Assembly (NCBI GenBank): GCA_013151355.1
Contig: JAADIL010000042.1
Span: forward strand, 1 to 37,008
Direction of reading: 5' to 3'
Length of the DNA stretch: 37,008 nucleotides
Source: Gammaproteobacteria bacterium
GTDB lineage: Bacteria; Pseudomonadota; Gammaproteobacteria; SZUA-152
Positions 12,858 through 36,183 of this stretch are shown here, one piece after another. Numbering within the stretch: the first letter of the stretch is position 1; each line of letters starts with the position of its first letter. The position numbers and the translations under genes were made by a program. The notes beneath the pieces are model-generated. The model was not told the DNA's origin, searched no databases, and was given only the letters and a program-made list of their open reading frames with translations.

Positions 12858-12894
12858 TGTTTATCGTTACCGGTAAGGAATGGAAATTAAATAA

Positions 12895-13237
12895 CTGATG
12901 TTACGCACTCGTAGCTATAGGGTGGGCAAAAACACATGCCCACCCGCTGCCTGGCCATCAGGCTAAGCCGGCCAGGGTGGAACAAGCGTAGCGGTTCCAC
13001 CAAACGGGAAAGGGACCTGTTCAAGGTTCGTTCAGTTATCGACATTGACTCGCCGTTTGCCAGTGAGTTGTGGTTGCATAAGGGCTTTTTTCTCCTGTTT
13101 CAGGCTATAGGGTTTTTGTTGCAGGGTGTGTTTTTGTCAGCGGTCGTGAACAGAGGCGATTTGTTGTTCCTTACCAGCAATCAGGTGGAACCGCTGCGCT
13201 TGTTCCACCCTACAATCGGAGGCCTGCGTAACATCAC
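12895..13237. mobile_element. MITE (343 bp), 13-bp TIR, 8-bp TSD, carrying GTAG-type REPs (family B)
   Basis: CTGATGTTACGCA (12895-12907) / TGCGTAACATCAC (13225-13237), 12/13 match; direct repeat TTAAATAA at 12887-12894 and 13238-13245. Confidence 0.85.
12973..13213. repeat. Inverted pair of GTAG-type REP sequences (REPIN-like)
   Basis: CAGGGTGGAACAAGCGTAGCGGTTCCACC (12973-13001) and GGTGGAACCGCTGCGCTTGTTCCACCCTAC (13184-13213); extra hairpin GGGTGGGCA..TGCCCACCC at 12920-12945. Confidence 0.85.
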
Positions 13238-13294
13238 TTAAATAACGTGTACACGTTATTTAATTTCCATTCCTGATTAATCCAGGTCAAACCA

Positions 13295-13735
13295 ATGCCC
13301 GCACCCGAAACACCCAAACTCACCGTCGATATTATTATCGAGCTTACTGACCAGCCCGGTCGGCCCATCCTGCTCATCGAGCGCAAAAACCCTTATGGCT
13401 GGGCGTTACCCGGCGGTTTTGTGGATGTGGGTGAAAGCCTGGAACAGGCTGCCGTACGAGAGGCTGCCGAAGAAATATCACTACCCGTAACACTCATTGT
13501 TTTGCTGGGGTGCTACTCCAGTCCTGATCGTGATCCGCGAGGTCACACCGTCAGCGCTGTGTACATTGCCGAGGCCAACGGTGAACCCTGTGCTGCGGAC
13601 GATGCTGCGAATGTGCAGATTTTTTTACCCGAGACTCTGCCCGGGATGCTGGCTTTTGACCATGCCCTGATCTTGACGGATTATCTGAATTATCGACAAA
13701 ACAACAAGCTGACACCGTTACGGAATCAGGATTAA
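13295..13735 (+). CDS. NUDIX hydrolase (ADP-ribose pyrophosphatase-like)
   Basis: Nudix box [34 protein letters not shown] and LAFDH motifs. Confidence 0.9.
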
Positions 13736-13969
13736 ATGTGGATCAAGCGCTAAAAACACGCTACGTTTAAAAAATCACCGGGTATTTAACACAGAGAACG
13801 CAAAGCGATATCTTTGTCCGTTGTCCTCTCATCCTTTGCGCTCTCTGCATCTCCGCACCTTTGCGTTAGATTTTATGACACAGCAATTCGTAGCCGGAGG
13901 ATGGTCTGTTCTGCTGAATGTAAACCAATGATTTTATTCGCCTGAATATTTTTAGCCCTTAATGCACAT
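13736..13969. mobile_element. MITE family C, copy 1 (234 bp), 4-bp TSD TTAA
   Basis: Ends ATGTGGATCAAGCGCTAAA / TTTAGCCCTTAATGCACAT; TTAA at 13732-13735 and 13970-13973; first 61 bp match copy 2 at 54 positions. Confidence 0.85.
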
Positions 13970-14004
13970 TTAAGTCACAAGTGCCCGGGAACCCGGCGCT
14001 GATC

Positions 14005-14031
14005 TAAAGCAGCCCCGGTACCTGCCGATAG
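14005..14031 (+). promoter_or_regulatory. Sigma28 (FliA)-type promoter
   Basis: TAAA (14005-14008), exactly 15 nt, then GCCGATAG (14024-14031), versus consensus TAAA-N15-GCCGATAA; about 60 bp upstream of the EAL-HDOD start. Confidence 0.75.
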
Positions 14032-14089
14032 CTCGACCAGTAAACAGACTTTTCAGTCTGTACCCGCGCTACCAGCAAGGATTGCCACC

Positions 14090-33304: not shown

Positions 33305-34320
33305 GCGACGGATCGCGCCTGCTGCATTTTCATGTGCCTGACCATTTCATCAGCCACCGACATTGCATATGACAAACTGTCGGCCCTGGCCTGACCTGTG
33401 CCTGCCAAAGCCAGTGCGGTACCGTGATCCACCGAGGTACGAATGATCGGCAGGCCTAATGTGATATTTACCGCTTTACCAAACCCCATGTGTTTCAATA
33501 CCGGCAAACCCTGATCGTGATACATGGCCAGCACGACATCGGCCTGTTGTAATGTTTCGTGGGTAAACAGGGTATCCGCTGATAATGGGCCTTGCACATC
33601 CATGCCGCGATCACGAAAACTTTGTAACACGGGTGTAATCGTCTCTGTTTCTTCTGACCCCAGATGACCGTCTTCACCGGCATGAGGGTTCAGGCCGCAA
33701 ACCAGAATACGCGGTGTATTAATACCTAACCTGATATGTAAGTCCTGTAACAACGTATCAATAACCTGTGAAAGACATTCACGCGTAATCGCTGCTGATA
33801 CTTCTTTCAGGGGCAGGTGGGTAGTGACCAGCGCAACCCGCAAGCCTTCGGTGGCCAACATCATTACCGGGTGACCACCCGTTTGCTGCGCAAGATATTC
33901 CGTGTGTCCGGTAAAGGCAATACCGGCTTCGTTGATGATGCCTTTGTGTACCGGGCCGGTGACCAGGGCATCAAACGTGCCGTGTTTGCAGCCATTAATT
34001 GCAGTATCAATGCTTTTTAAAACGGCCTGTGAATTTTTTACATTCAGTTGGCCAGGCAACACACGAGCAGCCAATGGAATATCCAGCACTGGCAATATGC
34101 CCGCACGATGAGAGCTTTTTACACAAGTGGTATTTTCCTGAAACGGGATGATCTCCAGCGGCAAATCCAGTTGCTGTGCACGAGCAGCCAGCAGTTCTGC
34201 ATCTGCAATAACAACCATTTCACAGAAATGATCTTGTTGCGCCATTTGCACACAAAGATCCGGGCCTATACCCGCCGGTTCTCCCGCCGTGATGGCCAGA
34301 CGATGAACTGATTCAGTCAT
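33301..34320 (-). CDS. pdxA: 4-hydroxythreonine-4-phosphate dehydrogenase
   Basis: GEPAGIGP, FTGHTE, GLNPHAGE, AMYHDQGL, RTSVDHGTA. Confidence 0.97.
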   Translation of the reverse strand: MTESVHRLAITAGEPAGIGPDLCVQMAQQDHFCEMVVIADAELLAARAQQLDLPLEIIPFQENTTCVKSSHRAGILPVLDIPLAARVLPGQLNVKNSQAVLKSIDTAINGCKHGTFDALVTGPVHKGIINEAGIAFTGHTEYLAQQTGGHPVMMLATEGLRVALVTTHLPLKEVSAAITRECLSQVIDTLLQDLHIRLGINTPRILVCGLNPHAGEDGHLGSEETETITPVLQSFRDRGMDVQGPLSADTLFTHETLQQADVVLAMYHDQGLPVLKHMGFGKAVNITLGLPIIRTSVDHGTALALAGTGQARADSLSYAMSVADEMVRHMKMQQARSVA

Positions 34321-34360
34321 AAACCACCACCCTCAACGTAATAAAAAATGTCACAAACAA

Positions 34361-35665
34361 TCAAAGCCGGTTTTGAACAAAAGCCTCGTCACGAATGCGC
34401 CGAACCCAGGCTTGCATGGCAGGGTCCAGTTTGCGCGCACGAATGGCGTCATTGGCATTTTTGTTTCGCACTTGTTCCGTGACATCCTGCTTGCGGCGTT
34501 CCAGCACCTGAATCAGGTGCCAGCCAAAACGGCTGCGCACCAACTCACTCAGTTCACCAACGTCCAGCGCGTTCATGCCCTGTTCAAAATTTGGCACCAT
34601 TTCACCCGGGTTCACCCAACCCAGTTCGCCACCTTCGGCACCCGAGCCGGGATCATCGGAATGTGCTTTGGCCAGCGCACCAAAATCTTCACCGGCAATA
34701 ATACGCTCACGAATTTTTTCCAGTCTTGCGCGTGCATCACTATTTTCTGTTTCATCAAAAGGTTTGATCAAAATATGCCGGGCATGTGTCTGGGTGATCA
34801 TGTGTTGTGGCTGGTTGTCGCGAATGTCGAGCATTTTGATAATGTGAAAACCGCTGGGACTGCGCAATGCATCACTGACATTATTCACATTCTGTTGCAC
34901 CACCCAGTCTGCAAACAGGCTGGGCAGGGCATCCGCGCGACGCCAGCCAAGGTCACCACCTTCCAGAGCCTGTTGACCATCAGAAAGTGCAATCGCGGTT
35001 TGCGCAAAATCAGCATTGGCGCGCAGGTCTCGCACAATTTTTTCTGCCTTCGTGCGTGCGGCTTTTATTTCCTGTGCATTGGCCGCTTCGGGCACGGATA
35101 CCAGAATATGGCCAAGGTGATATTCTTTATCTTCACCGCCACGTAATTTCTGGTTGTTGATAAAGTTGTCTATTTCCTGTTGGGTAACCACAATACGGCT
35201 GCGCACCTGGCGTTGTTGCAACCGGTTCACGGTAATTTCATCACGCATGTTTTCGCGGAAACTTTCAAAATTGATGCCTTCGCTTTGCAGGGCCGAGCGA
35301 AATTGCGACAAACTCATACGATTTTGTGCCGCAATATTTTCCAGCGTGCGGTTGAGCATGTCATCATCCACTCGTATGCTGCCACGTTTGGCCATTTGCA
35401 GTTGAATACGGCGCAGGATCATGCGATCCAGCAGTTGTTTTTTCAGTACGGCGTCACTGGGTAATTGTGTGTTTTGCTGGCTCAGCTGTTTTTTGATCAG
35501 CCCCATTTCTGCTTTCAGCTCCAGTGCGGTAATCACTTCGTCATTGACCACAGCGACAATGCGATCCAACGGATTTTCCACTGCCAGTTTTGCCTGAACC
35601 ACTGATGCCATCAGTAAGCTGCCTGTCAGTGTTATCCAGAAAAGTCTTTTTGTTATGCCATTCAT
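34361..35665 (-). CDS. surA: Periplasmic chaperone/PPIase SurA
   Basis: Signal peptide, LDRIVAVVND, two parvulin domains (GGDLGW..GFHI; GGELGW..FGWHLI). Confidence 0.96.
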   Translation of the reverse strand: MNGITKRLFWITLTGSLLMASVVQAKLAVENPLDRIVAVVNDEVITALELKAEMGLIKKQLSQQNTQLPSDAVLKKQLLDRMILRRIQLQMAKRGSIRVDDDMLNRTLENIAAQNRMSLSQFRSALQSEGINFESFRENMRDEITVNRLQQRQVRSRIVVTQQEIDNFINNQKLRGGEDKEYHLGHILVSVPEAANAQEIKAARTKAEKIVRDLRANADFAQTAIALSDGQQALEGGDLGWRRADALPSLFADWVVQQNVNNVSDALRSPSGFHIIKMLDIRDNQPQHMITQTHARHILIKPFDETENSDARARLEKIRERIIAGEDFGALAKAHSDDPGSGAEGGELGWVNPGEMVPNFEQGMNALDVGELSELVRSRFGWHLIQVLERRKQDVTEQVRNKNANDAIRARKLDPAMQAWVRRIRDEAFVQNRL

Positions 35666-35706
35666 ACTTGTTTTCTCTTTTTCACTTATTGCTTATAACG
35701 CTTGTA

Positions 35707-35999
35707 ATGTGAATTAATCGCTAAAAATACGCTATTTTTTAAAAATCACCGGGTATTTAACACAGAGGCCGCAGAGACGCAGAGTGCGCAGAGTTTTTAG
35801 TATTTTTCTCTGTGTCCTTTAGCGTCTCTGCGACCTCTGCGTTGATAACACGCCACTTGTCAGTACCACTACAACATAACCTCTCACTGTACCAGAACGC
35901 TTGTCCGGGGGTTTACACCTCTGGATTCCGGCTAAAAACATGCCGGAATGACGGTGTTTTCAAAAGTGCTAACAGAGCGATTTAGCCCTTAATTCACAT
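35707..35999. mobile_element. MITE family C, copy 2 (293 bp), 4-bp TSD TGTA
   Basis: Ends ATGTGAATTAATCGCTAAA / TTTAGCCCTTAATTCACAT; TGTA at 35703-35706 and 36000-36003; contains CAGAG arrays (35759-35843) and a CGTC-type palindrome (35921-35953). Confidence 0.87.
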
Positions 36000-36017
36000 T
36001 GTAATAATCGAGTAGGT

Positions 36018-36183
36018 GTAGGTTAGGGTAAATGTTTTTTTATGAACCTCAACATGCCAAGGTAACGCACTCCCACCAAAACCATCCTCAAGCCACCACA
36101 AACACATTTATTTCAATTTCCAACACCAGAATATTTCTGCTCCGTGTTATGAACCTGTTGGGGTTCGTGCTTCACCCCAACCT
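36018..36183. repeat. Inverted pair of a second GTAG-type REP family (left copy degenerate)
   Basis: GTAGGTTAGGGT...GAACCTCAACA (36018-36054) versus TGTTGGGGTTCGTGCTTCACCCCAACCT (36156-36183). Confidence 0.65.

Follow-up and report, generated by a model that had tools for sequence, protein, structure and literature searches.

Nested gene-less mobile elements of known kinds in the intergenic spacers of a gammaproteobacterium

The Locus and Its Genome

Several intergenic spacers of the gammaproteobacterial contig JAADIL010000042.1 (assembly GCA_013151355.1; 37,008 nucleotides) hold short repeats that are set into one another, and it is the nature of these repeats that is dealt with here. The stretch, referred to as the window throughout, is one entire 37-kb contig of the genome under study (G000), a metagenome-assembled genome (MAG) of 2.94 Mb in 278 contigs, with a GC content of 0.49 and a completeness rated at 84%. 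According to a profile search of its open reading frames (ORFs), the genes of the window include lptD-surA-pdxA-rsmA and mgtE, a gene content that is gammaproteobacterial. The public sequencing runs that contain window sequence are labelled hydrothermal vent metagenomes; RNA runs are not listed among them. An earlier sequence-only reading had proposed a candidate undescribed system in the spacers, made up of at least five types of ends (A to E) that would act as shells around exchangeable palindromic cargo. All five motifs were located where that reading had placed them, and all are multi-copy in G000.

In blastn searches against G000, seven repeat-bearing spacers gave 23 to 297 matches per spacer, while the control, four other window spacers, gave 1 to 3 matches each, self counted. 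A self-comparison of G000 places 3.3% of the bases in repeats with at least three other copies; the short interspersed repeats form 542 regions comprising 87,213 bases, i.e., ~3% of the genome, and 504 of these regions are joined into one network via common segments of at least 40 bp. By a crude ORF model, coding sequence accounts for 84% of G000, and repeats occupy ~16% of the remainder. Since at least 29 contig ends are located inside A- or C-family copies, all repeat counts are lower bounds. The modules (M numbers) are derived from an automatic segmentation, the clusters of which are usable, but the largest one is over-merged. As had been stated from the sequence, the window appears to be devoid of transposase genes: between 11.4 and 37 kb, 25 ORFs were tested, and neither a transposase nor an integrase was found among them. 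Rfam gave no match when the entire window was scanned at gathering thresholds and none at E up to 1 between 12800 and 36250, and Pfam and NCBIfam gave none for three ORFs overlapping repeats.

The features that carry the argument are listed below by window position. Terms used are terminal inverted repeat (TIR), target-site duplication (TSD), MITE (miniature inverted-repeat transposable element), repetitive extragenic palindromic element (REP), insertion sequence (IS), and REP-associated tyrosine transposase (RAYT).

12876-12895, unstranded: left arm of an A palindrome (AGGAATGGAAATTAAATAAC), 20/20 complementary to 13255-13274; together with 13247-13274 a 46-48-bp hairpin split by B
12895-13237, plus strand: B MITE, subfamily B345, 343 bp, inserted in the A arm; TIR CTGATGTTACGCA, TSD TTAAATAA at 12887-12894 and 13238-13245
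12974-13001, plus strand: REP-c hairpin, left copy within B, GGTGGAAC..GTTCCACC; same REP as the RAYT-flanking doublet of sister genome G005 (L052)
13184-13213, minus strand: REP-c hairpin with GTAG tag, right copy within B, GTAGGGTGGAAC.. on the minus strand; tag 25-26 nt inside the B end
13247-13274, unstranded: right arm, together with the loop (GTGTACAC), of the A palindrome split by B
13736-13969, plus strand: C MITE, subfamily C1, 234 bp; TSD TTAA at 13732-13735 and 13970-13973
27920-28164, plus strand: A element, 245 bp, 30-bp TIRs (97%), Acore interior; flanking trinucleotides TCA and TTA
28295-28455, minus strand: E element with five hairpins; left end (IS200 sense) at 28455, adjoining TTAA at 28456-28459
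28368-28398, plus strand: two-hairpin module common to E and C2 (in C2 at 35902-35932), 87% over 31 nt
29895-29914, plus strand: solitary A-type arm between convergent genes
35707-35999, plus strand: C MITE, subfamily C2, 293 bp; TSD TGTA at 35703-35706 and 36000-36003

The TSD-Forming Families B and C

C, the interiors of which fall into at least three subfamilies, is a MITE of the textbook kind. Its TIR comprises 19 nt (ATGTGAATTAAGCGCTAAA), and 165 ends at no more than four mismatches are present in G000, 44 paired. Perfect 4-bp direct repeats flank 21 of the 40 pairs with TIRs 60-700 bp apart, the most frequent words being TTAA (6), TAAA (5), and TTTA (5), besides others; when the test was moved outward by 4 to 20 bp, the counts fell to 0, 1, 0, 0, and 0. 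The 4-bp TSD proposed earlier is thus borne out by the window copies (TTAA, TGTA) and by the family. Among the interiors of 43 paired elements are C2 (at least 12), REPIN-a, i.e., an inverted REP doublet (7-9), C1 (~6), a nested Acore/H piece (3), and M6 (1). Six out of eight aligned copies of C with REPIN-a, referred to as C3, have one and the same architecture, and their flanks differ between loci.

B is a classical MITE as well. Its TIR is the 13-bp sequence given above, found at 61 ends with at most one mismatch, and T at -7 and -3 as well as A at -5 and -1 are seen in the outer flank of 34 to 45 of these 61, which corresponds to the logo T-N-A-N-T-N-A. Perfect 7-bp repeats occur at 8/15 pairs versus 0/15 in a shifted control. 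The 8-bp TSD ascribed to B from the sequence fits the window copy; for the family as a whole, the TSD is 7 bp long. The 15 paired interiors comprise the 92-bp basic form (5), the REP-c doublet (5), REPIN-a (3), E (1), and C (1). The form with REP-c, B345 (~345 bp), contains two inverted REP-c hairpins, and the REPIN-a form is the 92-bp basic form plus REPIN-a; in the forms with REP-a and REP-c alike, the GTAG tag begins 25-26 nt from the B end. Full-length B345 copies lie on contigs C256, C27, C215, and C230 of G000, with 7-8-bp TSDs of their own at C256, C27, and C230, and two more in sister genome G009 (L136, L137) have the TSDs TTAATAA and TTATTTCA. Because REP-bearing B345 is found at separate loci, each time with its own TSD, the composite moves as a unit.

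Both families hold REP or REPIN sequences, in line with the earlier supposition that TSD-forming MITEs carry REPs. The further claims that the same cargo occurs in different shells and that one shell can have differing interiors were confirmed genome-wide by a shell-by-cargo table. The description as non-autonomous, combinatorial elements is supported. Composites recurring at independent loci with distinct TSDs, which had been named as the mark of genuine shell-plus-cargo units, are represented by C with REPIN-a and by B345.

Presence of the elements varies among relatives. At the C1 locus, the element is missing at the orthologous site in 6/6 relatives listed, and the contig of a relative in run X3 passes over C1 (joint 13695 to 14068). 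The lptD-surA spacer, into which C2 and the F repeat described below are inserted, is bare (~35 nt) in five of eight close relatives, and two of the eight hold other or partial insertions; in relative L015, both insertions are likewise present (89% identity over 900 nt). The C2 copy of the window has matches in 11/13 other genomes of the genus. Empty sites are therefore given insofar as relatives lack B and C elements; an empty site of the same strain was not encountered in the contigs of four vent-metagenome runs. Metagenome joints across B do not count as evidence, their sides within the A repeat being no longer than 19-25 nt.

These comparisons also bear on the question of whether the mosaic was created by false joining of repeats or of organisms during assembly or binning. 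The fragmented state of the MAG (278 contigs), the 29 contig ends inside A or C copies, and repeat words that are hundreds of times deeper than unique flanks in the vent metagenomes would fit such an artefact. The same composites are, however, present in independently assembled genomes, namely in L015 (89% over 900 nt) and, as B345 with its own TSDs, in G009. In addition, contigs of four runs span the gene-element junctions 12743-12911, 13259-13435, 13407-13789, and 13941-14265, although the source sample may be among these runs. An artefact is accordingly considered hardly credible.

Two candidate partners were rejected. An IS5 nested within a C MITE of sister genome G009 (L089) has its own TIRs and merely sits inside the C element, and the TIRs of an IS1595 near a B-like 13-mer (L127, G009) differ from those of B.

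The A Palindromes

A is a TIR/palindrome family in which no TSD was found. With the arm GGAATGGAAATTAAATAAC, 150 ends at no more than four mismatches were counted in G000, 39 paired, and the TIRs measure 19-30 nt. The 39 paired elements enclose Acore alone (20), nothing but the TIRs (10), E alone (3), Acore and E (3), Acore and H (1), B (1), or no library piece (1). Elements with Acore total ~177 bp, bare A palindromes 37-47 bp. The stretch 12876-13274, formerly taken for an A shell, is actually a 46-bp palindrome split by B; of the same family is the element at 27920-28164, the Acore of which has a repeat depth of 46-122. This A[B] block is missing in 7/8 relatives listed; it folds into three concentric layers of inverted repeats contributed by A, B, and REP-c (z = -8.9). 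As to empty sites of A, the one comparison available gave an ambiguous result.

In sister genome G004, an IS630 is nested within an A element. An IS630 (L108) was rejected as partner of A, its TIR stopping before the adjoining Acore piece, and an "A" match beside IS fragments in G011 was dismissed as a weak chance match. An intact IS630 of G004 (L106; contig C65:349-1482) has a TIR, TATACCCATAG.., that matches the ends of M6, a 163-bp family with 36 segments in G000. Judged by its ends, this IS630 is likely the autonomous partner of M6, a family absent from the window.

The E Unit

Instead of two hairpin ends around a module, as had been assumed, E is one unit of ~161 bp, of which 30 full-length copies are found among 115 matches. 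Both ends are common to the copies, and there is neither TIR nor TSD; TTAA directly follows 52/62 copies of one end, and the flanks of the other end vary. The unit folds into five hairpins (z = -6.2), with hairpins near both ends on one strand. The end on the TTAA side is 86% identical over 43 nt to a sequence of G004 that adjoins TTAA as well and immediately precedes a degraded IS200 tnpA. Because of the TTAA at one end and of this match to the left end of an IS200-type element, E is assigned, on sequence grounds, to the non-autonomous elements derived from IS200/IS605, the palindrome-associated transposable elements (PATEs), and would be a deletion derivative. E would be mobilised by a transposase of IS200 type. 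An intact IS200 cognate of E was not found; the IS200 tnpA of G000 (NF033573) has an in-frame TAG and adjoins TTAA.

The second stem of the module that E has in common with C2 shows a paired change, ATTCTGGC/GCCAGAAT versus ATTCCGGC/GCCGGAAT. RNAalifold was applied to the 30 copies of E, the alignment of which is too gapped and the copies too similar to reveal covariation.

REPs and Their Transposase

The GTAG-tagged REP, consisting of GTAGGGTGG plus a stem, occurs 81 times in G000 versus ~22 expected occurrences and has three stem variants. REPs are mostly arranged as inverted plus/minus pairs, 64-83 nt apart, on many contigs; among the module clusters, the doublets correspond to M9, with 18 segments, and M11, with 16. 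A RAYT is encoded in sister genome G005 (L052) by an ORF of 135 amino acids (NF047646, 167 bits; cut-off 80), and a REP-c doublet lies ~150 nt downstream of it. The GTAG-tagged hairpins REP-a, REP-b, and REP-c are REP/REPIN elements belonging to a tyrosine transposase of RAYT type. In the G000 assembly (84% complete), an intact cognate RAYT was not found. Out of 34 places with REP-c in G000, 16 are near a B end, 6 have a G-type flank, and 1 has both, which makes 21/34 with either. Of the autonomous partners sought for each end since the sequence-only reading, there have thus been obtained the RAYT for REP-c (G005) and, for one end of E, a match to a degraded IS200-type element (G004), and none for A, B, and C.

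Words from the REP-c regions (12927-13048, 13171-13231) are several hundred-fold deeper than adjacent single-copy genes in runs X1-X4; REP-c is very abundant across the vent community. On contig C244 of G000 (322-1319; L002), a RAYT-like gene encoding 313 amino acids (NF047646, 80.8 bits; cut-off 80) is located between 21-nt inverted repeats, AAAGGGGTCGTTGCTTGACAT, which form a small TIR family with ~10 places in G000. As partner of E, this family was rejected, only a 9-mer being in common.

Nesting and Proposed Co-Mobilisation

With repeats at ~16% of the non-coding DNA, some nesting is to be expected, and the exact position of the insertions is the decisive point. Among the E ends, 13 of 77 adjoin the outer half of an A TIR (binomial 1.5e-10; the background being at most 150 A TIRs among 10,003 TTAA sites), and TIRs of A or C, with a share of 1.3% in the estimated non-coding DNA, contain 8 of the 61 B ends (1.1e-6). 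Particular TIR positions have received far more insertions than their availability as sites would account for. The base of the A TIR at which E is situated is always the same, whether the arm is the left or the right one and whether Acore is present or not; occurrence in both arms, in either company, calls for several separate insertions.

From these data, a scenario in two steps is proposed, in which B and C would be moved in trans by staggered-cut (DDE-type) transposases and E would insert beside TTAA without duplication. The first step, visible in the positions themselves, is nesting with site preference, B favouring A/T-rich TNANTNA and E favouring TTAA. Such sites are offered by the TIRs of A (..AAATTAAATAAC) and of C (..GAATTAAGCGC..), so that the same base is struck repeatedly. 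The second step would be co-mobilisation: once a REP or REPIN has come to lie between B or C TIRs, the MITE transposase would copy the whole composite. Products of this step would be C3, with C ends and REPIN-a, and B345, with B ends and a REP-c doublet, each copy having its TSD. The outcome of co-mobilisation is seen in these copies; the mechanism is what we infer from them. Ends shared by elements with differing interiors, as well as the module common to E and C2, would be the residue of such events and of recombination between copies.

In place of five equivalent shell types in one system, there are a palindrome that stands by itself (D), a single unit (E), and at least three transposition chemistries, namely a presumed DDE-like one with TSD (B, C), that of the HUH/Y1 RAYT (REPs), and an HUH/Y1 one of IS200 type (E). 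We consider it probable, at about three chances in four, that at least eight families of mobile elements without genes, all of known kinds, live in the spacers as a community found throughout the genus, in which the sequences of one family are parasitised by another and the elements are nested and then co-mobilised. The mosaic is genuine, and the families are new, their kinds being known; it is ordinary selfish DNA, and no new system or machine is involved. The proposal of an undescribed system is not upheld, for the components as well as the processes (target preference, nesting, co-mobilisation) are known.

Part of the pattern might also be produced if the chimeras arose mainly through gene conversion and through recombination, homologous or by template switching, between dispersed copies, with shells and interiors being reshuffled in place. 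At lptD-surA, relative L014 has the right C end of the window together with its flank, a C1-type interior, and no left end, as would suit such reshuffling. The synteny with G009 breaks exactly at the spacers 25.4-26.1 and 27.9-28.5 kb, the E/C2 module has no recognisable ends of its own, and the linkage of 504/542 repeat regions by common segments would likewise suit recombination. The clean TSDs around whole composites at different loci, on the other hand, require transposition of the composite; B within an A arm has duplicated TTAAATAA; and the position of E at the same A-TIR base, in either arm, with or without Acore, requires insertion. Recombination as the main source is for these reasons thought possible, yet rather doubtful.

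Several points speak against the scenario of nesting and co-mobilisation or narrow it. The enrichment tests assume independent copies, and composites transposed later inflate the counts; the copies being non-independent, both p-values overstate the case. The non-coding estimate is taken from a crude ORF rule (84% coding), and in a short-read MAG some repeat junctions could be mis-joined. The flanks of A are without direct repeats, with TCA..TTA in 8/20 oriented copies and mixed flanks in the others. The right end of E is unmatched to the IS200 copy of G004, which is degraded. G000 itself has a RAYT remnant on C106 and the RAYT-like gene on C244, neither of which adjoins REPs. No pair of A, B, or C ends forming TIRs 600-3500 bp apart was present in 513 kb of fetched loci, and searches of five sister genomes with five Pfam transposase families (PF01609, PF13358, PF00665, PF12762, PF13359) yielded no autonomous element for A, B, or C, i.e., no autonomous IS with B ends and none with C ends. 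For B and C, a DDE chemistry is for this reason presumed from TIRs and TSDs only.

A more far-reaching version, which is put forward tentatively and rated as improbable rather than probable, would have REPINs freed from their own tyrosine transposase by means of a fixed subterminal site in the TSD-forming MITEs B and C, to be amplified as passengers by an unrelated transposase, and E homing to the TTAA in the hairpin-forming TIR of another MITE. The result would be a multi-level hyperparasitic network with two or three transposition chemistries, in which REPs outlast the decay of the RAYT. The window as such illustrates in compact form the interplay of small selfish elements that have different enzymes: MITE ends serve other elements as landing pads, and REPINs may be carried and multiplied by a foreign transposase, a way in which REP families might survive the loss of their RAYT.

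Further Repeats and Observations

The remaining features of the window are the following.

25433-25463, unstranded: D palindrome, copy 1; an ATG provided with a ribosome-binding site (GGAG) follows 11 nt downstream
25606-25863, plus strand: G repeat, ~255 bp, with two inverted REP-c copies at 25678-25701 and 25813-25841
26003-26034, unstranded: D palindrome, copy 2, ~30 nt upstream of a 64-aa ORF
36004-36187, plus strand: F repeat, ~180 bp, end hairpins GGTTGGGG..CCCCAACC; depth 7, module M35 with 6 segments

D had been listed as a shell. It is a palindrome of ~35 bp (CCAGTACACCGTCAA, 7/8 nt, TTGACGGTGTACTGG) that encloses nothing and is found at 17 places in G000 (15 outside the window), with unrelated flanks each time. 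It may be a shared operator or regulatory site more than mobile DNA, and thus not a shell; the 64-aa ORF following copy 2 encodes, as its sequence suggests, a lipoprotein. The REP pair reported between the D copies is present, and it is part of the separate G repeat of ~255 bp, of which sister genome G007 contains at least 25 copies, with identities of 76-95%. A 150-aa ORF at 25475-25927 without family match has a good ribosome-binding site and runs straight through the G repeat, so that one is dealing either with a spurious frame or with a small gene into which G has been inserted disruptively. The F repeat, which had not been listed in the sequence-only reading although it lies within the range considered, is inserted in the lptD-surA spacer as its second element and is missing in 5/8 relatives.

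The situation of D just upstream of two start codons brings up the idea of a dedicated capture system, i.e., of cassettes kept by the host (integron-like, or of terminator or regulatory type) that recruit REPs for termination, mRNA stability, or nucleoid organisation. Intergenic placement, strong single-strand folds (z = -6.2, -8.9), and the occurrence of REP-c mostly in B- or G-type contexts (21/34 places) could be understood in this way. The placements are, however, accounted for by TIR, TSD, and target motif; linkage of the shells to a recombinase or to any other gene is lacking, and the 25 ORFs include no transposase or integrase. Presence or absence varies among close relatives at every locus examined, copies are decayed and truncated, and a match in Rfam is lacking at E up to 1. 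A capture system is thus deemed very improbable.

Shared gene order with G009 (contigs C75, C21, and C54) is interrupted exactly at the repeat spacers of ~25.4-26.1 and 27.9-28.5 kb, which suggests rearrangement, or gene gain or loss, at the repeats. A further TIR-bounded repeat with the modules M19+ M12- M19- and ~15 copies is located at 2540-2705 of the window. Within G000, the contig pairs C113/C124, C216/C26, C130/C276, C19/C277, and C247/C270 contain kilobase duplications with 78-86% identity, which may be paralogous regions or derive from a second, related strain binned together. For annotation, it is of relevance that ~3% of such vent-bacterium genomes are uncatalogued repeats, that these break assemblies, and that they generate spurious ORFs, e.g., at 12936-13241, 25421-25927, and 27860-28168.

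Comparison with Known Systems

With the REP/REPIN-RAYT systems (Bertels & Rainey 2011, PMC3116915; Di Nocera et al. 2013, PMC3733652), the present repeats have in common the GTAG-tagged palindrome, the inverted doublets, and a RAYT flanked by the same REP, the latter in a sister genome; they differ in that REP-c is mostly situated inside TSD-forming MITEs or the 255-bp repeat. RAYT relatives flanked by TIR families have been described, and the RAYT-like gene of contig C244 with its TIRs resembles the "TIRtrons" (PMC3733652).

The term PATE is in use for derivatives of IS200/IS605 (PMC3119063, PMC10055086). E is like these in having no TIR and no TSD, end hairpins in the same orientation, and TTAA at one end only; that end resembles, at 86% over 43 nt, the end of a degraded IS200-type element bearing tnpA. 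Unlike them, it is strongly over-represented at one TTAA in the TIR of another element. Insertion sequences are known to target REPs (Tobes & Pareja 2006, PMC1525189), so that a preference of mobile elements for other palindromic repeats is shared with that case. Here, in contrast, the inserters B and E are non-autonomous, the targets are the TIRs of MITEs, and the REP inside a MITE is propagated as well.

Intergenic mosaics form another term of comparison, by organisation only: as in these, spacers are filled with varying combinations of few modules. In E. coli, REPs of types Y and Z are clustered and, by way of defined linker motifs, combined into bacterial interspersed mosaic elements (BIMEs). 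The BIMEs of E. coli and the neisserial intergenic mosaic elements (NIMEs) of Neisseria are intergenic mosaic elements (PMC3184786) without sequence relation to the present repeats; BIMEs, moreover, are REP clusters plus linker motifs and have no TSD-forming shell.

As regards MITEs, the words nested, cargo, and chimer are absent from the available text of two broad papers on prokaryotes (PMC10969869, PMC11602168), and passenger and REPIN are absent from that of PMC10969869 as well. No account of REPINs propagated inside MITEs was found in the literature searched, which is not proof of its absence.

A further parallel is provided by REP dimers embedded in longer palindromes, as described for GTAG-15 of Anabaena variabilis and CGTC-1 of Halothiobacillus neapolitanus (PMC3733652). 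In both instances, a doublet is placed at a fixed position in a repeated, longer inverted-repeat structure. According to that paper, target palindromes without REPs were not found in the Anabaena and Halothiobacillus cases. The shells described here, by contrast, also exist free of REPs, in the 92-bp form of B and in C1 and C2, and their TSDs mark them as MITEs.

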